This document shows, piece by piece, positions 6,150-19,053 of a stretch of DNA of 60,948 nucleotides. The notes below the pieces were generated by a model, which saw only the letters and a list, made by a program, of their open reading frames with translations, searched no databases and had not been told where the DNA came from. Every line of letters begins with the position of its first letter. Position 1 is the first letter of the stretch. The stretch is from positions 1 to 60,948 of the forward strand of contig JAAKFL010000001.1 of NCBI GenBank assembly GCA_011065065.1, read 5' to 3'. The translations under genes were made by a program, and so were the position numbers. The DNA comes from Chlamydiota bacterium. GTDB lineage: Bacteria; Chlamydiota; Chlamydiia; Chlamydiales; SLFE01.

Positions 6150-7178
6150 ATGGACATTCAATCACCTTCATCTGGATTTTTTGAACTAATACCTCACGAA
6201 GTAACCGTATCCATTTTTCAAAATCTTGACCCTTCTTACCGAGGCACACTTTCCTGTGTTTGCAAAGTCTGGAACGAAATTGTGAATAATCAGTCCTTAT
6301 GCCGGAATTGGAAAAAGAACTATATGGTTCAAGGTGAAGGAATCTGCTGTAAGGTCGAAGATTATACGGGATTGGTTCATATCGAGGTAGGTAGGAAAGA
6401 TAGTAGTGTATCTAATACTTGGGTTTATGGTAGAGGATATAACCTATTTGAACGGGTTCCCGTTTTGAAAGTGAAAATTGGATCTCACGTTTTGTGCTCC
6501 GATCGAAAACATGCATTACCATCTGATGGTATTACCACAGAAGGTAGTGAATTCGTTTATTACAGATATAGTGATAGTTTGCGGTTCAAATTAATAGCTC
6601 CTCAAACTATTGAAATTTATTCACATGATACTTTTGACGATCAGGAATCCAGGGTTTATGTGGATACATCTGCGGATTATCGTTATTTGGTGCATAAAAC
6701 ATTAGACCTTTTCCCAATTAATGTTGAAGAGGGAATTTCTTACTTTGTCTGCGACTTTATTCCAAGGGAAATTTCCGAAAGTGAAGCTCAGGAGAGATTT
6801 GACGTTTTTGTGGCGGATGTTTCTTTATCTGAATACCGGTGTATTTATAACCGTTTTGGCCTAGTTGTGGAAAATATTGGTGAAAAAGGGTATCAAATGT
6901 TTTTATCACGGCCCAGTGATGAATCCTTTGAAGAAATTAAAATCGATCCCAAATTTTTGCCCTATTCAAAAGAAAGTATACGTCATATTACTACGAAGAA
7001 TGTGACGTTTTCAGGGTTAGATTATGGTTATTATGAAGGAGGTTCTTTTAAATTAATTGTTGTCAATTATGCGTCTGAAGAGAGTGATAAGGAGATTATA
7101 GTTCACTTAGAAGGAGAGGAAGCGACAACCCTTGTGCAAACCAAAGGATTTACAGTTCCCTATCGTATCATAAAATGA
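6150..7178 (+). CDS. F-box domain protein
   Basis: aa 13-54, LIPHEVTVSIFQNLDPSYRGTLSCVCKVWNEIVNNQSLCRNW, fits the F-box consensus (LPxE..I...L....L..L..VCK.W..L). The C-terminal 290 aa are unassigned. Confidence 0.85.
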   Translation: MDIQSPSSGFFELIPHEVTVSIFQNLDPSYRGTLSCVCKVWNEIVNNQSLCRNWKKNYMVQGEGICCKVEDYTGLVHIEVGRKDSSVSNTWVYGRGYNLFERVPVLKVKIGSHVLCSDRKHALPSDGITTEGSEFVYYRYSDSLRFKLIAPQTIEIYSHDTFDDQESRVYVDTSADYRYLVHKTLDLFPINVEEGISYFVCDFIPREISESEAQERFDVFVADVSLSEYRCIYNRFGLVVENIGEKGYQMFLSRPSDESFEEIKIDPKFLPYSKESIRHITTKNVTFSGLDYGYYEGGSFKLIVVNYASEESDKEIIVHLEGEEATTLVQTKGFTVPYRIIK

Positions 7179-11692: not shown

Positions 11693-13915
11693 TTGTCAAA
11701 AACCGATTTTTTAAACACGATTGGTATAGATCCCGAACCGATACTTGAGCTCTTAAAACCGGGCGGTCGATTATGCGCGTTCCTAAAGGAGTTTGAGTCA
11801 CGGCCTCAACAAGCGGAAATGATGGAAAGTGTCATTTCTGCTTTCAATGACAAAGAAATTTCTCTTATTGAAGCTGGAACCGGAACGGGTAAAAGTATCG
11901 CTTATCTAATTCCGGCTGTCATCAAAGCCGTTTATCATAAAGAACGGACACTGATCTCGACTAAAACAATTAATCTTCAGGAACAATTAATCCAAAAAGA
12001 CTTGCCGCTTGTCAGCAAGGTTTTGGGAGTCGACTTTAAGGCGGTTTTGGTCAAAGGGATGGGCAATTATCTTTGCCTGCGTAAACTACAAGATTCCTCG
12101 ATGGAAGAATTATTTCTTCCGAACAATCAAGCCGATCAGCTGCGAAGGATTGCCGCTTGGGGACAACAGACGAAGACGGGTTCAAAATCTGATCTTCCTT
12201 TTAATCCTTTCTCCGCTGTTTGGGAAAAGGTCAATTGCGAAGCTGATACTTGTACGTTTCGAAAGTGTCCTTTTTATCAGCAGTGTCACTTTTTTAAGGC
12301 GCGCGAAGAAGCCAAAGATGCGCAGATTTTGGTGTCAAACCATCACTTATTATTTGCTGACCTTGCTTTAAGAGCTGAAGAGGAGAATTATGAAGAAGCG
12401 GCTCTGTTGCCTTCGTACAAACATGTCGTGGTAGACGAAGCGCATCATATTGAAGAGGTGGCGACTGATTTCTTTGCACAACGCGTTTCGCGAACCGACT
12501 TGATGAAGATTATGGGACGATTGGCTTCGGAAAAGGCCGGAGATGATGCGGGGAGACTTCCTCTTCTCAAAAAAAAACTCATTCAATTTTACAAAAAAGG
12601 GCCGCATGATCAGATTGAGAACCTTCTGAATACTTTCAATGTCGATTTATCTTTTTGTCGTCGAGAAGTCATTCAAGGTATTGCCGATTTGTTTCAGGCG
12701 CTTTCATTTTTCTTTGAAGAAAAGCTTTCGAAACAGGATGAGGAAAATAAGCTTCGTCTCCATCCTCATCATTATTCAGAAAAAGTCTGGGAAGAAGAGG
12801 TAGTGCCGGCGGCACAAAAGTTCTTGCATTCCATTAAAAAATATGTGCGGATGCTTCAGACCCTCTGCCGTGATATTAGAGACATTGATCAAGATCAGCT
12901 TCAAGAACAAGCTCTAGGGTTGTTGACCGAAGTCAACGCTTATGCAGGCCGATTGGATTCTTATGGTCAGGTTGTTGAGGAATTTGTTTTTAGTGAGATC
13001 AAGGATGATAGTGTTCGTTGGATTGAAAGCCATCAAATGAAAACTTTGAATAACATTCACTTGATTGAAGCCAAGCTCGACGTCTCACCTCATTTAGTGC
13101 AGAACTTTTTCTCGAAATTTCAGACCATTATCCTGTGTAGTGCGACACTCAGCACAAATCAAAATTTCGGATTTATGAAAAAGAGGTTGGGGCTCGATTC
13201 AGATCTACTTTCTTGTCGCACGATCAATGAGAAGATTTTTCAATCTCCTTTTAACTTTCAAAAGCAATCGCTACTTCTGGTTCCTTCGACTTTACCGCCC
13301 CCTAACCATAAAAATTATGTTGATGTGGCATCTGAAAGCATATTGCAAGCGATTAAGGCCAGTCACGGAAACTGTTTCATTCTTTTTACATCATACACCA
13401 TGTTGAAACAATGTTATGAAAAACTGAGCTCAAGACTGCGAAGTCTCCGTTTCCCCATCATGAAGCAAGGAGATGATCAGAGGCAAGCTTTACTATGTTT
13501 GTTTCGAAAGACAGAAAGATCGGTCCTTTTTGCCACAGATTCGTTTTGGGAGGGAGTTGACGTTTCAGGGGAAGCTTTGCGTTGCGTGATTTTGGTGAAA
13601 TTGCCCTTCAAAGTCCCTTCTGAGCCTATTTTTCAGGCCCGTTCAGAGTTGATTGCCAAGAACGGAGGAGATCCCTTTAGGGATTATGCGCTTCCCGGAG
13701 CCGTTGTCAAATTCAAGCAAGGTTTTGGTCGATTGATTCGTCATAAGTGTGATCGAGGAGTCGTCGTTGTTCTCGATACCCGTTTGATGACCAAAGGGTA
13801 TGGAAAAATCTTCTTAAGAAGTTTGCCTGATTGTCCAAAATTGTTTACTCAGGATCTGGAAAAAGAGATGAAGGAATTTTATCGGCGGACTTATCCATTA
13901 GTTCTTTCGAGGTAA
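11693..13915 (+). CDS. dinG: DinG/XPD-family ATP-dependent DNA helicase
   Basis: Walker A AGTGTGKS, DEAH box VVDEAHH, and the Fe-S Cys cluster CEADTCTFRKCPFYQQC. Confidence 0.85.
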   Translation: MSKTDFLNTIGIDPEPILELLKPGGRLCAFLKEFESRPQQAEMMESVISAFNDKEISLIEAGTGTGKSIAYLIPAVIKAVYHKERTLISTKTINLQEQLIQKDLPLVSKVLGVDFKAVLVKGMGNYLCLRKLQDSSMEELFLPNNQADQLRRIAAWGQQTKTGSKSDLPFNPFSAVWEKVNCEADTCTFRKCPFYQQCHFFKAREEAKDAQILVSNHHLLFADLALRAEEENYEEAALLPSYKHVVVDEAHHIEEVATDFFAQRVSRTDLMKIMGRLASEKAGDDAGRLPLLKKKLIQFYKKGPHDQIENLLNTFNVDLSFCRREVIQGIADLFQALSFFFEEKLSKQDEENKLRLHPHHYSEKVWEEEVVPAAQKFLHSIKKYVRMLQTLCRDIRDIDQDQLQEQALGLLTEVNAYAGRLDSYGQVVEEFVFSEIKDDSVRWIESHQMKTLNNIHLIEAKLDVSPHLVQNFFSKFQTIILCSATLSTNQNFGFMKKRLGLDSDLLSCRTINEKIFQSPFNFQKQSLLLVPSTLPPPNHKNYVDVASESILQAIKASHGNCFILFTSYTMLKQCYEKLSSRLRSLRFPIMKQGDDQRQALLCLFRKTERSVLFATDSFWEGVDVSGEALRCVILVKLPFKVPSEPIFQARSELIAKNGGDPFRDYALPGAVVKFKQGFGRLIRHKCDRGVVVVLDTRLMTKGYGKIFLRSLPDCPKLFTQDLEKEMKEFYRRTYPLVLSR

Positions 13916-13940
13916 AGTACTCCCAACGAACTTTATGCTT

Positions 13941-13977
13941 TTTTTCACCACAGAGGCACAGAGGTACAGAGAAGAGT
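13941..13977 (+). repeat. CACAGAG-type repeat module
   Basis: tttttcaccacagaggcacagaggtacagagaagagt lies between convergent genes. Confidence 0.7.
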
Positions 13978-14008
13978 CATAATATAATTTTTGTTGCTCC
14001 TTTACACT

Positions 14009-15157
14009 CTATTTATCTGTTAACATTTCCCTGTACAATAAGGGCAACGCAATACTTAACTGTTCTTCCACTTCCAACAATGTTTCTGGATCCACTTGGC
14101 AAAAATAGGGAACCTTGCAGTAAGCTTTATGTTTTCCGTTTAAAGAAACTGCTTCGGAAACAGGGTAATAGGGCAAAATCCAGTACCCTCCTAAAAAATG
14201 AAGGTCAATTTGACGGTTATTGTAAGCCAAAATGAAAGCCACCCGCATAGTAGGTTGAAAAATTTGATTATCGAAGTGGGGAACAGGGATAGGATCTGAT
14301 GAAAAGAATTCTTCAACGATAAATGTATCAAAGTGATCTTTATACCAGTATTGATAAGACTTGTCAGGGTCTATATGTAGTTGGGAACTTTTGATTAAAA
14401 TATATTTAAGGGTTTCATCCAGATCTTCTTGATTCACGATGATGACACCGTTTCCAAGGTAGGCCCCACGAGGTTTAATCACAAATTGATCACTTTGTAT
14501 CTCTGAAATGATTTTTTTGGCTAAATCTAGAGAATATATTTTCTCATAAAGATTCCATCTTGGTTTGAATGAGGCCAATATTTCATTGCGGGAGAAAAGT
14601 TCAGTCATTTTATATTTGTCTTGCCAATAGGAGTTGGAGGCAGCATCAATGAAAATGATACCGGGGTACTTTTCGATAAATTTGTCGATATTTTGAATTT
14701 GCCTTCCTCTTAAACAAACACACCCATGATAAGACTGGAGATTATACGGATCTTCAACGGGAAGTACGGACTGACGCATAAAATGGGAATCGGATTTTAT
14801 TGAATTAACTCCCTTCGTGACATGCCATTCAGGGGATGACTTCAATATGTTGCAAATTTGCACTTCAGAAAAACTGTCGGCTGTTGTCCAAAATTCATTT
14901 TGGTATTGGAGTAACGTATGATAGAAATTTATAGGGATAATTCCTGGCTCTCCATGTGAAAATCGATCACCATAAAAAGTCGAATCGGTTCCATGCTGGA
15001 TTTCACAAATTTTGACTCCGTCTCTCTGATTATATTTAAGGTCGGCAATGAGAAATGTTATGTCCGCAGGAAGCGTTGCATCGATCAATTCGTTTTCGAC
15101 ACCTTCGAGAGTGCTAACAAGTAGCAGTACCCAAAGAATAAGTATTTTAATTTTCAT
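14009..15157 (-). CDS. secreted ATP-grasp-like (TTL-like core) protein, paralog 1
   Basis: Signal-peptide-like N-terminus MKIKILILWVLLLVSTLEG. Core FVIKPRGAYLGNGVIIV, then FIVEEF...QPTMRVAFILAY, resembles the ATP-grasp/TTL WIxKP..G.G.GI and KFDLRVYVLV blocks. No clear E-x-N Mg site seen. Confidence 0.6.
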   Translation of the reverse strand: MKIKILILWVLLLVSTLEGVENELIDATLPADITFLIADLKYNQRDGVKICEIQHGTDSTFYGDRFSHGEPGIIPINFYHTLLQYQNEFWTTADSFSEVQICNILKSSPEWHVTKGVNSIKSDSHFMRQSVLPVEDPYNLQSYHGCVCLRGRQIQNIDKFIEKYPGIIFIDAASNSYWQDKYKMTELFSRNEILASFKPRWNLYEKIYSLDLAKKIISEIQSDQFVIKPRGAYLGNGVIIVNQEDLDETLKYILIKSSQLHIDPDKSYQYWYKDHFDTFIVEEFFSSDPIPVPHFDNQIFQPTMRVAFILAYNNRQIDLHFLGGYWILPYYPVSEAVSLNGKHKAYCKVPYFCQVDPETLLEVEEQLSIALPLLYREMLTDK

Positions 15158-15168
15158 GTATGAACCTT

Positions 15169-16305
15169 TTAATTCTCTGCAATTAACATCTCTTTGTACA
15201 ACAAAGGTAATGCCACATGAAGTTGTTTTTCGACCTCCCTCAACGTTTCAGGGTCTACTCGGTAAAAATAGGGAATCTTGCCACAGTTTTTATGTTTTTC
15301 ATTTAAGGTGCCTTCATCGGATAATGATAAACGTGGAAGTTTCCAATACGCTCCAAGAATATGTAAATCAATCTCACGATTATGATAAGCACAAATGAAA
15401 GCCACGCGCATTGTTGGTTGATAGAGTTGATTATCAAGATGAGGGATACAGAGGGGATCTGATGCGATGAATTCTTCGACAAGGAAGGTGTGAGATCGAT
15501 CTTTATACCAATAATTGTAAGAATTATCAGGATCTTTATCAAGTTGACGACTTTTGATGAGAATATATCGCAGTGTTTCATCTAAATCCTCTTGATTGAC
15601 AATGATCACACCATTTCCTAAATAGGAACTTCTGGGCTTAATGACAAACCAATCACTTTTTATTTCTTCGATAATTTTTTGAGCGAGTTGCGCATCGTAT
15701 TCCTTTTTATAAAGATGCCATCTTGGTTTGAATGAGGACAGGTTTTCATTGCGAGAAAACAGCATCGACATCTTATATTTATCTTCCCAGTAGGGAATAG
15801 ATGCCTCATCAATGAGAATGATCCCCGGGTATTTTTTCATGAATTTGCGATGTTTGTTAAGAACCCATTTTCTTGTACATATACATCCATGATAGCTTTG
15901 GATGTTAGTCGGATCTTCAACAGGAAGGGCCGCTTGTTGCAAAAAAAATGCGTTTCTTTCAACAGCTGGTAGATGATCAAGCACATGCCATTCAGGTGAG
16001 GCCATCAACTGATTTTTTATCTGCGCCTCAGAAAAATTATTATGAGTCGTCCAAAATTCATTTTGATATTGAAGTAACGTGAGGTAAAAATTTTCGGGAA
16101 TAATCCCTGGTTCGCCATGAGAATAGCGATCGCCGGAAAATGCTGAAGCAATTCCATGCTGAATCTCACAAATTTTCACACCATCCTTTTGATTGTACTT
16201 AAGATCGGCAACGAGGAATGTGATATCCACTGGGTATTGAGATTCAAAACCTTCTAAAGTGAAAATGAAAAAGAGAGCCGTAAGAAATATTGCTTTAAAT
16301 TTCAT
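15169..16305 (-). CDS. secreted ATP-grasp-like (TTL-like core) protein, paralog 2
   Basis: Roughly two thirds identical by eye to the adjacent paralog. Same signal peptide ending TLEG and the same FVIKPR..YLGNGVIIV core. Only an 11-nt gap to paralog 1. Confidence 0.6.
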   Translation of the reverse strand: MKFKAIFLTALFFIFTLEGFESQYPVDITFLVADLKYNQKDGVKICEIQHGIASAFSGDRYSHGEPGIIPENFYLTLLQYQNEFWTTHNNFSEAQIKNQLMASPEWHVLDHLPAVERNAFFLQQAALPVEDPTNIQSYHGCICTRKWVLNKHRKFMKKYPGIILIDEASIPYWEDKYKMSMLFSRNENLSSFKPRWHLYKKEYDAQLAQKIIEEIKSDWFVIKPRSSYLGNGVIIVNQEDLDETLRYILIKSRQLDKDPDNSYNYWYKDRSHTFLVEEFIASDPLCIPHLDNQLYQPTMRVAFICAYHNREIDLHILGAYWKLPRLSLSDEGTLNEKHKNCGKIPYFYRVDPETLREVEKQLHVALPLLYKEMLIAEN

Positions 16306-16401
16306 GTGTGACTTTTCGTGAAATTTAATCTTAGATTATCCTCGAGAGTCATATATTGCAAATTTCAAGCCCTAAATGATTCATATCATGAAGTTAAGAG
16401 A

Positions 16402-16617
16402 ACAGTATCCGTAGGGAAGTCGCATGAAGAAATTTCTTAACGTTTACCAACCATTTTTCCTGAAAAAGCATCCTGTATATCCTTATTATCCTGCCTATCC
16501 TGTTTTTTTTTCGGACGTGAAAAATAGGATAGGCAGGATAGTAAGGATTAACAGGATAAAACGTCCAGAAAATTGTATCAAGAAATTTTTTTATGCAATT
16601 TCACTGACAGTATCCGT
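16402..16617. mobile_element. MITE-like element carrying an ATCCTG-type hairpin, flanked by 11-nt direct repeats
   Basis: ACAGTATCCGT occurs at 16402-16412 and 16607-16617. Imperfect terminal inverted repeats are agggaagtcgcatgaagaaatttctt and caagaaatttttttatgcaatttcactg. The central hairpin is 16470-16507 / 16520-16557. Confidence 0.4.
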
Positions 16618-16724
16618 GCCGGCGTTCAATGAAGTTCTATAAATTCTTCTTTATAAAAAACATGCATTTTGTGTATAAGTAAAAAACTTAGGTAGAAAAG
16701 TTTTATACAAATTTGGAGTTCTCT

Positions 16725-17504
16725 ATGAGTAGTCGATTTATGAGTTTTATTATTTCAGTTATCTTGATCTTTTCCATATTATTGCCCGATTTTGCTTTTT
16801 CTGAAGTTGGAGTTGAGGGATATCAAAGCAGGAGAAAAATTTCTTCACAAGAGGCTGCTGAGTTAGAATCAGGATGCCATGATGATGAGACTTATTGGGA
16901 GGCCGAAAGTGTAGGTCCTGTTTGCGAAGCCTCTTCCCAGCCAGATGAGTCAGTTCACGTCAATCTAAAGCCACGAAGGGTCTCAGTGCCATCATCGCCG
17001 AGTCGAGAAGAAGTGGACTGTCCATATGTTTATGAAGAACCCTGCGAACCGATGCTTTACGAAGAGTGTAATGAACCCTGTGCTCCTTGTGGGAAAAAGT
17101 TTTTGTTTCCAATTGCAGCCACTGCTGCGGGATTGGCGATTGGGGCCGTTGAAGCGACAAATTGTCATAAAGGTTGTGATCCGCTTGCTGATCAGTTGGA
17201 TTTTGTGGTGACGATAACTTTAAGTCCTGATGAATCTGCTGCCAGTTTGGGTCTTGATATTCTTTTTCCTAATCTATCACTCCTTCAAGCACTTAGTTTC
17301 TCTTCGAGCTCATCTGGAACGTTCACTCAGACAAGCGTTTCCACTACCAATTTTGTGAGTGGTGATAATTTCACTGTTGATGTGACTGCTGAAAGTCAGG
17401 CGTCCAATTTGATTGTGAGTGGGAGGATTAACGGAGTGATCTTTGATACACAAACTGTTCCAAGTCCAAATACTTCAACAAATTTAACCTTTACGATTCC
17501 TTGA
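16725..17504 (+). CDS. lineage-specific envelope/secreted protein, paralog P1 (Cys-rich acidic region, glycine-zipper hydrophobic segment, Ser/Thr-rich C-terminal domain)
   Basis: Signal-like N-terminus, CPYVYEEPCEPMLYEECNEPCAPC, FLFPIAATAAGLAIGAV, and a C-terminus GVIFDTQ...NLTFTIP. Start moved to the ATG at 16725, downstream of GGAG. Confidence 0.7.
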   Translation: MSSRFMSFIISVILIFSILLPDFAFSEVGVEGYQSRRKISSQEAAELESGCHDDETYWEAESVGPVCEASSQPDESVHVNLKPRRVSVPSSPSREEVDCPYVYEEPCEPMLYEECNEPCAPCGKKFLFPIAATAAGLAIGAVEATNCHKGCDPLADQLDFVVTITLSPDESAASLGLDILFPNLSLLQALSFSSSSSGTFTQTSVSTTNFVSGDNFTVDVTAESQASNLIVSGRINGVIFDTQTVPSPNTSTNLTFTIP

Positions 17505-17511
17505 GGTAGTC

Positions 17512-17976
17512 ATGAAAAGAGTCGTGCTTGTGAGACATGCTAAGCCCGAAAGTGCTGCATTTACGAATGACTCAGAAAGACCTTTGAGTGATGAAGGGCG
17601 TCAGGTTCATGAAAAGATCTCTCATGAATTGAGACAACAAAACATTGTGCCCACAAAAATTATAACCTCTCCTTTATTAAGAGCCAGGCAAACCGCTGAG
17701 ATTATGTCAAAAGTCTTTGATGGTGTTCCGATTCAGGAATCGGCGATTTTAGATGGAACGCATAGCGTAGATGAGATTGTTGAGACGATTGCAGACATGG
17801 AACATGGAGAAAGCATTTTTCTTGTAGGTCATGATCCGAACATGACCCAATTTGTCAATAAGCTCGGATCTGAAAAGGTAACGGAAGGGGTTCATAAGAG
17901 TGGGTGTGTCGTTTTTGATTTTCCGGATGAAATTTCCTTTGGGAAAGGGCAATACGTCGGATACATTCATCCGTGA
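17512..17976 (+). CDS. sixA: SixA-like phosphohistidine phosphatase (histidine phosphatase superfamily)
   Basis: VLVRHAKPE (RHA catalytic motif) and VGHDPN (second His). 154 aa, typical of SixA. Starts 8 nt after the P1 stop. Confidence 0.7.
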   Translation: MKRVVLVRHAKPESAAFTNDSERPLSDEGRQVHEKISHELRQQNIVPTKIITSPLLRARQTAEIMSKVFDGVPIQESAILDGTHSVDEIVETIADMEHGESIFLVGHDPNMTQFVNKLGSEKVTEGVHKSGCVVFDFPDEISFGKGQYVGYIHP

Positions 17977-18043
17977 TAATTTTCTTTCAATATATCGAAT
18001 TTTTTGGTAAAAGTATTTTTTTAGTCTTCAAATTGGTGTCGTT

Positions 18044-18406
18044 ATGTACAAGTACATTTTTATCTTAGTCACTGTTCTTCTACCACTTTCAGCATTTGCA
18101 GATGGTGGGGTAACAGGGTATCGGACTCAAAGACCGACTACAACTTCCAAAACTGTTGTGGAATCTGGTTGCCGTGATGCTGGCATGCGTTCCGAATTGG
18201 AAAATGTGGGAATTCCCAGGAAGGACCCGATAGAAATTGTGGTTCAATATGTTGAGCCAGATGATGAAGAAGTGGTTATGGCAGATGAGTTATTGATTCT
18301 GGATGCCGAAAGGTCTGTGCCGGCTGCAAAAGGGAAGAGAAGAGTGTCTCCCTCAAGATCATCGCTTTCTAATTCTCCCTTAAAACCAATAAGAGCCTCA
18401 AATTGA
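18044..18406 (+). CDS. paralog P2: N-terminal-module-only member of the P1 family
   Basis: Signal peptide plus GVTGYRTQR...ESGCRD matches P1 GVEGYQSRR...ESGCHD. KRRVSPSRSS matches P1 PRRVSVPSSPS. The hydrophobic and C-terminal domains are missing. Confidence 0.55.
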   Translation: MYKYIFILVTVLLPLSAFADGGVTGYRTQRPTTTSKTVVESGCRDAGMRSELENVGIPRKDPIEIVVQYVEPDDEEVVMADELLILDAERSVPAAKGKRRVSPSRSSLSNSPLKPIRASN

Positions 18407-18423
18407 ATGAAAGGAGTCCAGGA

Positions 18424-19053
18424 ATGTTCGGTCGTTTCGCAAAGTTTGTGTTTTTGACATTCGCTCTCTTCACAATGTCTCTCTCTGGTTACTCTGAATG
18501 GAGGGGCTATGAAGAGGACGGCATGTACATGGATGAGGAAGATCAAGAGTTAGTGGTTAAGCCTCTACCAAAAGGTTATCATCCTGTTTCTGACGAATGG
18601 CATGATACGACAAAGGGGCCTCCTTTGTGTAAATTTGTCATTCCTGCGGGAATCGCTGCCATTGGTTTGACAATTGGGGCTGTTAAGGCTCTGGAATGTG
18701 AAAATTGTGTTTATAAAACTGCATTGCAATTTACCGGTTCTTTTCAGGCCTCAACTGGTGGAGATACAACTTTGGTATTTAAGATTCTCTTTCCTGATAC
18801 TATTGTTTTTTATAATGATAGCCTTATTTCTGGAGATGCTACAGGGGGGGCAGCAGTCAATTTTTCAAGTGGAACGACCACGAGTTATAAGAGCGGAGAT
18901 ACATTTACAGTGAGTGTCATCAGCCTCAGTTCGACAGGTAGCAGTAGCCCAACAAATTTTACGGTTAATGGGCTCATAGCAGGCGTTATTTTTGATACGC
19001 AAAGTGCAACACCTCCGACAGGAACGACAACATTTACCTTCACCATACCCTAA
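18424..19053 (+). CDS. paralog P3 of the P1 family
   Basis: AAGGAG sits 7 nt upstream of the ATG at 18424. FVIPAGIAAIGLTIGAV and the C-terminus GVIFDTQ...TTFTFTIP match P1. Confidence 0.7.
   Translation: MFGRFAKFVFLTFALFTMSLSGYSEWRGYEEDGMYMDEEDQELVVKPLPKGYHPVSDEWHDTTKGPPLCKFVIPAGIAAIGLTIGAVKALECENCVYKTALQFTGSFQASTGGDTTLVFKILFPDTIVFYNDSLISGDATGGAAVNFSSGTTTSYKSGDTFTVSVISLSSTGSSSPTNFTVNGLIAGVIFDTQSATPPTGTTTFTFTIP

Follow-up and report, generated by a model that had tools for sequence, protein, structure and literature searches.

Two neighboring genes of an uncultured, environmental Chlamydiota bacterium encode proteins with an ATP-grasp fold behind a predicted secretion signal. They lie at 14009-16305 of the window, by which we mean the whole stretch analyzed: 60,948 nucleotides, positions 1 to 60,948 of contig JAAKFL010000001.1 in GenBank assembly GCA_011065065.1. 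Gene 1, the upstream member, and gene 2, its downstream paralog, appear to represent a new and unnamed ATP-grasp family of mostly intracellular bacteria, with an export signal and a circular permutation of its own; a literature search found no description of such a family. By a small margin over an even call, we read the pair as tandem copies of an exported, permuted ATP-grasp carboxylate-amine ligase that would modify a co-exported surface macromolecule with host ATP. Export signals are unexpected on enzymes that use ATP, which is normally lacking outside the bacterial cytoplasm.

The proteins have an ATP-grasp fold

Both open reading frames (ORFs) are intact and lie on the minus strand. The first-pass annotation, made from the letters of the window alone, described two adjacent genes about two thirds identical; the gap is 11 nt, and BLASTP gives 65% identity across 379 columns. 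It also described hydrophobic N-termini closing on TLEG, which both proteins have: each begins MK.K and runs into a hydrophobic stretch with TLEG at its end. The motif blocks on which it based the fold (DKYKM..LF, FKPRW.LY, FVIKPR..YLGNGVIIV, VEEF and QPTMRVAF) are all present, and conservation across an alignment of 70 family sequences is highest in them.

Using this alignment, AlphaFold2 (AF2) gave a model of the gene 1 protein with a predicted local distance difference test score (pLDDT) of 94.9 and a predicted template modeling score (pTM) of 0.91. A Foldseek search of the PDB with the model returned 37 matches at E≤0.001, every one an ATP-grasp enzyme (probability 1.00, E values from 1e-7 to 1e-3). 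The top matches are eukaryotic glutathione synthetases (2hgs, 1m0w, 8fbz), YgiC/GspS-like proteins and 3n6x, which align near full length with E values of 1e-7 to 4e-5 and template modeling (TM) scores of 0.39-0.45. D-Ala-D-Ala ligases (Ddl), ArgX, DcsG, RimK and biotin carboxylase domains follow. On the predicted structure, the ATP-grasp assignment is correct in the broad sense, and eukaryotic glutathione synthetase is the nearest relative by fold search. However, the glutathione synthetase/YgiC group has no sequence-profile relation to the family, differs from it in size and lacks a signal peptide.

Sequence profiles point to another branch of the superfamily. Pfam gave sub-threshold ATP-grasp matches only, the best to PF14397 (ATPgrasp_ST) at 22.5 and 18.3 bits for the two window proteins against a cut-off of 31.4; it spans residues 168-285 of gene 1 and, for the window proteins, profile positions 14-125 of 278. 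PF14397 is also the best sequence-profile match of the family, with 35 of the 70 members matching it (best E value 1e-8). A single relative (P0037) exceeds the curated cut-off, with 35.1 bits over part of the profile. Unlike a full member of PF14397, the family matches only profile positions ~14-165 of 278, and the window offers no sugar-transfer context. An NCBIfam scan gave no match for the window proteins, and sequence and profile searches of the PDB returned nothing meaningful. By sequence the family would be nearest to classical RimK/ATPgrasp_ST-type ligases.

The first-pass annotation had called the core ATP-grasp or tubulin tyrosine ligase (TTL)-like. The first half of this name stands, given the Foldseek probability and the recurrent weak match to ATPgrasp_ST; the second does not. 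With hmmscan neither protein matched the Pfam TTL family (PF03133) even at E≤10, PF03133 is not one of the four Pfam families that the 70 members match at E≤0.01, and the 50 best fold matches in the PDB include no TTL or TTL-like (TTLL) structure. These results do not support a TTL-like identity. PF03133 belongs to the same superfamily, and the K...K...E...R order that had suggested it is the general ATP-grasp order; nothing links the window family to tubulin.

The ATP site is conserved and the magnesium site is probably permuted

The invariant residues of the 70 sequences, in gene 1 numbering, are D34, C46, E47, Q49, S54, F121, D175, K176, L182, K193, P194, L207, V221-P224, G230, G232, L241, W266, E277, R300 and P324. 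We compared the family by hhalign with a RimK profile built from Escherichia coli RimK and 16 chlamydial RimK-like ORFs. A RimK alignment taken from the protein search had been discarded, being ~88-90% identical throughout and useless as a profile. D175-K176 pairs with RimK D99-K100, K223 (VIK) with K141, the G230-N-G232 segment with the glycine loop, and E277 (VEEF) with E178 (V-Q-E-Y, Q177-E178); R300 comes after this hinge. Inspection of the ATP-site residues, a check proposed with the first-pass annotation, thus found invariant residues aligned with the ATP-binding lysines and the hinge glutamate of RimK. The enzymes appear to be catalytically intact.

In native order the alignment ends at RimK residue 206. 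The first-pass annotation had not found the usual C-terminal E-x-N magnesium-binding motif, and it is indeed missing there: no acidic residue after R300 is conserved in the 70 sequences, and in the model the protein ends in one long helix. The mature N-terminus of the gene 1 model, meanwhile, is a long beta-hairpin with strands at residues 27-38 and 42-50. When a module of residues 22-60 was placed behind the C-terminal helix, the alignment extended to RimK residue 270 and paired D34 with D248, E47 with E260 and Q49 with N262. It scored 46.3 with a probability of 80%, compared with 40.7 and 60% in native order. Controls with 20 column shuffles, the reversed module or no module all scored 40.7-40.9, so that 0 of 22 reached 46.3. 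By itself the hairpin module aligns with RimK residues 241-269 at a score of 21.3; shuffled versions average 11.0 (sd 2.7), and none of 60 reaches 21.3. Pfam scans of re-ordered single sequences, in two designs, gave an ATP-grasp match that was no longer and no stronger. From the profile alignments we consider it probable that D34...E47-x-Q49 is the magnesium-binding D...E-x-N moved to the N-terminus by circular permutation, and hence the counterpart of the motif absent from the C-terminus.

The classic example of a circularly permuted ATP-grasp enzyme is human glutathione synthetase, in which the E-x-N (E144, N146) precedes the ATP-binding lysines. Polekhina and co-workers are said to have described the eukaryotic glutathione synthetase as a permuted ATP-grasp in 1999. 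A 25-sequence profile of CP_ATPgrasp_1 (PF04174) aligned with the family at an hhalign probability of 0.2%, and neither CP_ATPgrasp_1 nor GSP_synth (PF03738) was matched by the window proteins in Pfam. E. coli YgiC alone aligned along the lysine strand only (22 columns, probability 0.5%). Since the CP_ATPgrasp_1 profile is unrelated, the permutation would not be of the CP_ATPgrasp_1 type. It seems to shift the last hairpin only and looks independent of the permutation known earlier.

The ligases RimK (E. coli, 5zct) and LysX-ArgX (ArgX, 3vpb) share the ATP-grasp fold with the family. The RimK profile alignment spans the DK motif, lysine strand, glycine loop and hinge, and extends over the putative D/E-x-N hairpin after re-ordering; RimK/LysX-ArgX enzymes ligate amino acids to protein C-terminal carboxylates, which is the chemistry we propose here. 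However, they are cytoplasmic and keep the classical order of elements, whereas the family has a predicted signal peptide, probably the last hairpin first, and Gln for Asn. The profile similarity of RimK to the family is weak (probability 60-80%).

Most members carry a predicted export signal

Signal peptides were called with a heuristic of our own in the 173 members in which the first strand could be anchored. In 133 of these, a leader of 12-45 residues has a hydrophobic core and small residues at -3/-1 (A-x-A-like) and ends 3-5 residues before the first strand. Examples of the cleavage sites (slash) are LHSA/SKYPVD and VHA/SERYPVD, with ..TLEG/FE and ..TLEG/VE in the window proteins. Another 19 members have fewer than 12 residues ahead of the domain and are probably truncated gene calls; 14 more have a leader with a weak hydrophobic core, some of them apparently truncated. 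The leader of gene 1 combines a basic n-region with a hydrophobic core, and its residue at -1 is small. A secretion signal ahead of the ligase fold, as first annotated, is therefore a feature of the family by this heuristic. The basic N-terminus suggests an N-in orientation, which would place the domain outside the cytoplasm. With the proposed metal-binding strand beginning so near the cleavage site, the leader is unlikely to be an uncleaved anchor.

There is a precedent for a secretion signal ahead of an ATP-grasp ligase domain: CPED1 (C7orf58), a secreted TTL-like ATP-grasp protein of animals predicted to modify cell-surface polymers (PMC2824669). CPED1 differs in being eukaryotic and in its fusion with two further domains, a PC-esterase and a cadherin-like one; no sequence relation to the family was detected.

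We also surveyed TLC-type (ATP/ADP-type) nucleotide transporters, of which the window genome encodes five. Four of the five non-chlamydial genomes with signal-peptide-bearing members carry 2-8 TLC transporters. None was found in the four genomes with leaderless members (three Saccharimonadia and one Omnitrophota) or in the 14 control genomes. As the genomes are few and related, the association of transporter and leader is a pattern and not a test.

The family is patchy and apparently mobile

A search of 5.8 billion proteins yielded 187 relatives of similar length, and the few that carry a name are listed as hypothetical or uncharacterized. Their sources are environmental Chlamydiae (Waddlia, Parachlamydiaceae and many metagenome-assembled genomes), together with some otherwise labeled genomes. 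Among 1.84 billion cluster representatives, the family profile matched 759 at E≤0.001 and 323 at E≤1e-30, far more than chance would give. Relatives are also present in genomes labeled Dependentiae/Babeliales, Pseudomonadota, Gammaproteobacteria, Saccharimonadia and Omnitrophota, labels that for metagenome bins may be wrong.

The nearest named relative of the window organism is Criblamydia, with 83% identity between their RpoD proteins. Its genome (1.9 Mb, 80% complete) encodes the two copies of the family and no others. Within the Chlamydiota, 32 of 400 genomes encode the family, in a patchy manner, and tandem copies recur in further genomes. It is absent from the four other genomes of the window's own taxonomic family and from all 29 genomes of one Chlamydiota family with genomes of 1.0-1.2 Mb, a Chlamydia-like size; no Chlamydia-named protein is among the database matches listed.

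A genome of the same genus has rpoD, dinG, 45 nt, a SixA-like phosphatase and the same paralogous membrane proteins as the window, with no ATP-grasp gene. In metagenome contigs of close relatives (SNF transporter ~80% identical), this cluster has one ATP-grasp gene at its opposite end, flanked by the SNF transporter gene and sdhC. Both window proteins and these metagenome relatives form a clade of five in the tree (support 99). The GC content of the two genes is 0.372 and 0.373, compared with a gene mean of 0.422 (sd 0.03). The patchy spread, the absence from the sister genome, the relocation in the cluster and the low GC suggest an accessory gene that moved within a small region, was duplicated here and is missing from the sister genome. 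On this comparison, we read the pair as an accessory and horizontally mobile gene that has been duplicated in tandem.

One sister clade is coupled to a collagen-like protein

We screened 61 loci for conserved neighbors and found none except a gene for a collagen-like protein (PF01391, E value 5e-39); the neighbor genes of the window recur in none of these loci. In 12 of the 16 members of one sister clade (support 99), the collagen-like gene lies directly upstream of the ATP-grasp gene on the same strand, often overlapping its start codon. No member outside that clade has such a neighbor. The head of the collagen-like protein is conserved, ~150 residues long, and ends in ...N-V-V-Q-L-D; its model (pLDDT 73.6) resembles TNF-family trimers and the Bacillus spore protein BclA. 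A literature search found no link between ATP-grasp enzymes and collagen-like proteins.

The genomes with the module are labeled Chlamydiae, Dependentiae and Saccharimonadia. In Chlamydiae, Dependentiae and similar loci with a complete N-terminus, the ligase and the collagen-like protein both have signal peptides. Neither has one in three Saccharimonadia loci, where the gene overlap leaves no space for a missed leader. The enzyme and its partner thus change compartment together, which argues for action on each other.

The two-gene module is translationally coupled, as seen at L022:4578-7167, L024:4612-7179, L033:5174-7146 and nine more loci.

Proposed activity and alternatives

We propose that the enzyme would be exported by Sec and fold outside the cytoplasm, in the periplasm, at the cell surface or in the vacuole lumen, with the last beta-hairpin and its D34...E47-x-Q49 placed directly behind the signal-peptide cleavage site. 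Host-supplied ATP, crossing the periplasm on its way to the bacterial nucleotide transporters, would be the energy source. On a co-exported macromolecule of the envelope or surface, the ligase would activate a carboxylate and join an amine to it, for example an amino acid. The carboxylate would most likely belong to the C-terminus or an acidic side chain of a protein; an acidic sugar of a glycoprotein is a further possibility. In the sister clade, the target would likely be the collagen-like fiber protein, through its conserved C-terminal Asp, the invariant glutamate of a GL.EE loop, or glycans. In the window, the nearest candidate substrates are, speculatively, the neighboring membrane proteins ending in ..FTFTIP, which stay linked to the ATP-grasp gene in the metagenome relatives; no homology was found between these proteins and the head of the collagen-like partner.

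If true, this would be ATP-driven chemistry in a compartment that textbooks hold to be ATP-free. An exported, catalytically intact ATP-grasp family would be a clear counter-example to ATP-free periplasmic and surface chemistry, one connected with the ATP scavenging by which Chlamydiae, Dependentiae and similar symbionts live. The ligase and the collagen-like fiber protein would offer a testable enzyme-substrate pair in organisms whose surface biology is barely known, and an apparently independent circular permutation would be added to the ATP-grasp fold. We tentatively put forward a more general idea, post-export ATP-dependent protein modification. Ligases of energy parasites, made compatible with a signal peptide by the new permutation, might decorate or cross-link the bacterium's own surface proteins, in one clade a collagen-like fiber with a TNF/BclA-type head.

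Several observations weigh against an exported ligase with a permuted magnesium site that acts on a surface partner. Neither the head of the collagen-like partner nor collagen repeats were found in the window genome, which is 80% complete. One genome whose family member has a signal peptide (G401) has no TLC transporter, and the presence of the transporter may simply mark an intracellular lifestyle. As to the permutation, two smaller profiles of other chlamydial ATP-grasp families gave no gain in score after re-ordering, so that one of three canonical profiles supports it. Gln stands in place of the canonical Asn of E-x-N, and the deep sister clade (clade B) has K-I-L-E-x-G-E-G (E-x-G-E) where the others have K-I-C-E-I-Q-x-G. 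Finally, N-terminal ankyrin repeats are present in three members of the deep sister clade and fit host targeting equally.

Ankyrin repeats are a typical host-interaction module, and they would suit a host-directed effector that, after Sec export, reaches the host cytosol by type II secretion or in vesicles and ligates amino acids to a host protein, tubulin being a special case. The near confinement of the family to intracellular bacteria of several phyla, its patchy and transfer-like distribution and the lack of conserved bacterial neighbors in most clades are also consistent with such a role. Legionella effectors with a predicted ATP-grasp fold provide a precedent (PMC11696984). However, a Sec leader by itself does not reach the host, and the sole conserved partner is a bacterial collagen-like fiber protein whose signal peptide is gained and lost jointly with that of the enzyme. 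The lack of a TTL profile or fold match and the absence from the 29 Chlamydia-sized genomes also speak against it, and we judge a host-directed effector unlikely. The host-tubulin effector of the first-pass annotation is not supported: beyond these negatives, no Chlamydia-named match is listed and a sister clade is operonic with a bacterial protein. For the window pair this removes a tempting but unsupported link to the microtubule modification by pathogenic chlamydiae.

The exported ligase could instead act on a small molecule or the cell wall; the acceptor of the amino acid would then be a peptidoglycan stem peptide, lipopolysaccharide or another envelope glycan and not a protein. The nearest Pfam family is the sugar-transfer associated PF14397, D-Ala-D-Ala ligases are among the fold matches, and one relative (L111) adjoins a secreted peptidase of the M15 type, another (L112) an MptE-like protein. 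These last two are single cases, however, and no glycan genes were found beside the ten clade-B genes scanned, nor any cell-wall or glycan genes flanking the window pair. We think a cell-wall or small-molecule substrate improbable, at about the level of a host one.

It is highly improbable that the proteins are non-catalytic relics, exported ATP-grasp-fold proteins that lack ATP at their destination and, for instance, only bind: Gln replaces the Asn of E-x-N and exported ATP-dependent enzymes are to our knowledge nearly unknown in bacteria, but both paralogs keep the ATP-site residues and every aligned ATP-site position is invariant across 70 sequences that are ~40-65% identical to the window protein (mean column identity 44%), which makes an inactive relic unlikely. 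Modification of a co-exported surface macromolecule remains the reading we favor.

Features of the locus and its relatives

Table 1. Positions of the gene pair, its predicted domains and adjoining features in the window.
Feature	Position	Strand	Basis
Gene 1 (upstream of the pair), 378 aa: predicted signal peptide and putatively permuted ATP-grasp domain	15169..16305	-	ORF, AF2 model, fold matches
Gene 2 (downstream paralog), 382 aa; every family-invariant residue kept, numbering +5	14009..15157	-	Alignment
Predicted Sec signal peptide of gene 1, residues 1-19, MKFKAIFLTALFFIFTLEG	16249..16305	-	Kyte-Doolittle 10-residue maximum 2.89
Predicted Sec signal peptide of gene 2, residues 1-19, MKIKILILWVLLLVSTLEG	15101..15157	-	Hydrophobic maximum 3.55
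N-terminal beta-hairpin of gene 1, residues 27-50: invariant D34, C46, E47, Q49	16156..16227	-	Model strands and alignment
Equivalent hairpin of gene 2, residues 32-55: D39, E52, Q54	14993..15064	-	Alignment
ATP-binding core of gene 1, residues 175-300: D175-K176, K193, K223, G230-N-G232 loop, E277 hinge, R300	15406..15783	-	hhalign with RimK
ATP-binding core of gene 2, residues 180-305	14243..14620	-	Pfam and alignment
Spacer between the genes, 11 nt (aaggttcatac), with AAGG Shine-Dalgarno-like element	15158..15168	-	Sequence
Divergent intergenic region 5' of the pair: promoter-like site and hairpin repeat element	16306..16712		Sequence scan
SixA-like histidine phosphatase	17512-17976	+	PF00300, E value 6e-11

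No terminator-like site was seen within 13800-16800, and the pair is probably co-transcribed. A promoter-like site (TTTGCA-16-GATAAT) lies upstream of it at 16362-16335; as such sites are not more numerous than expected from shuffled sequence, it is a candidate only. The same divergent intergenic region contains a hairpin-forming repeat (caggataggcaggat...) at 16402-16617, which borders the segment absent from the same-genus genome.

Beyond this region, the plus strand at 16713-19053 encodes three exported or membrane proteins that are paralogs of one another (263, 120 and 216 aa), interleaved with the SixA-like phosphatase. Common to all three are a signal peptide, an acidic stretch rich in Cys and Pro, a hydrophobic segment rich in Gly and Ala, and a beta-rich domain with an FTFTIP end. 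The cluster is syntenic in the same-genus genome and the metagenome relatives, where the tails read FTFTIP, FTITLP, IFTTP or SFVAP.

Several relatives have other arrangements. On the contig of relative P0004 (L111:4543-6008), the ATP-grasp gene overlaps the end of a gene for a 253-aa helical protein without a Pfam match, and a secreted M15-type peptidase-like protein precedes this overlapping pair. In a metagenome-assembled genome labeled Omnitrophota (L059:276-4904), the family ATP-grasp domain lies in the middle of a 1542-aa multidomain protein without a signal peptide. Another, labeled Pseudomonadota and with eight TLC transporter matches, encodes two clade-B ATP-grasp genes, one of them ankyrin-fused, followed by a Fic-domain gene (PF02661, E value 3e-24) at L055:3841-7908.

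Four further genes of the window (35483-37322, 6150-7178 and 194-748) have a GC content of 0.354-0.369, which is lower than or similar to the values of the ATP-grasp pair and well under the mean; they may be further acquisitions.

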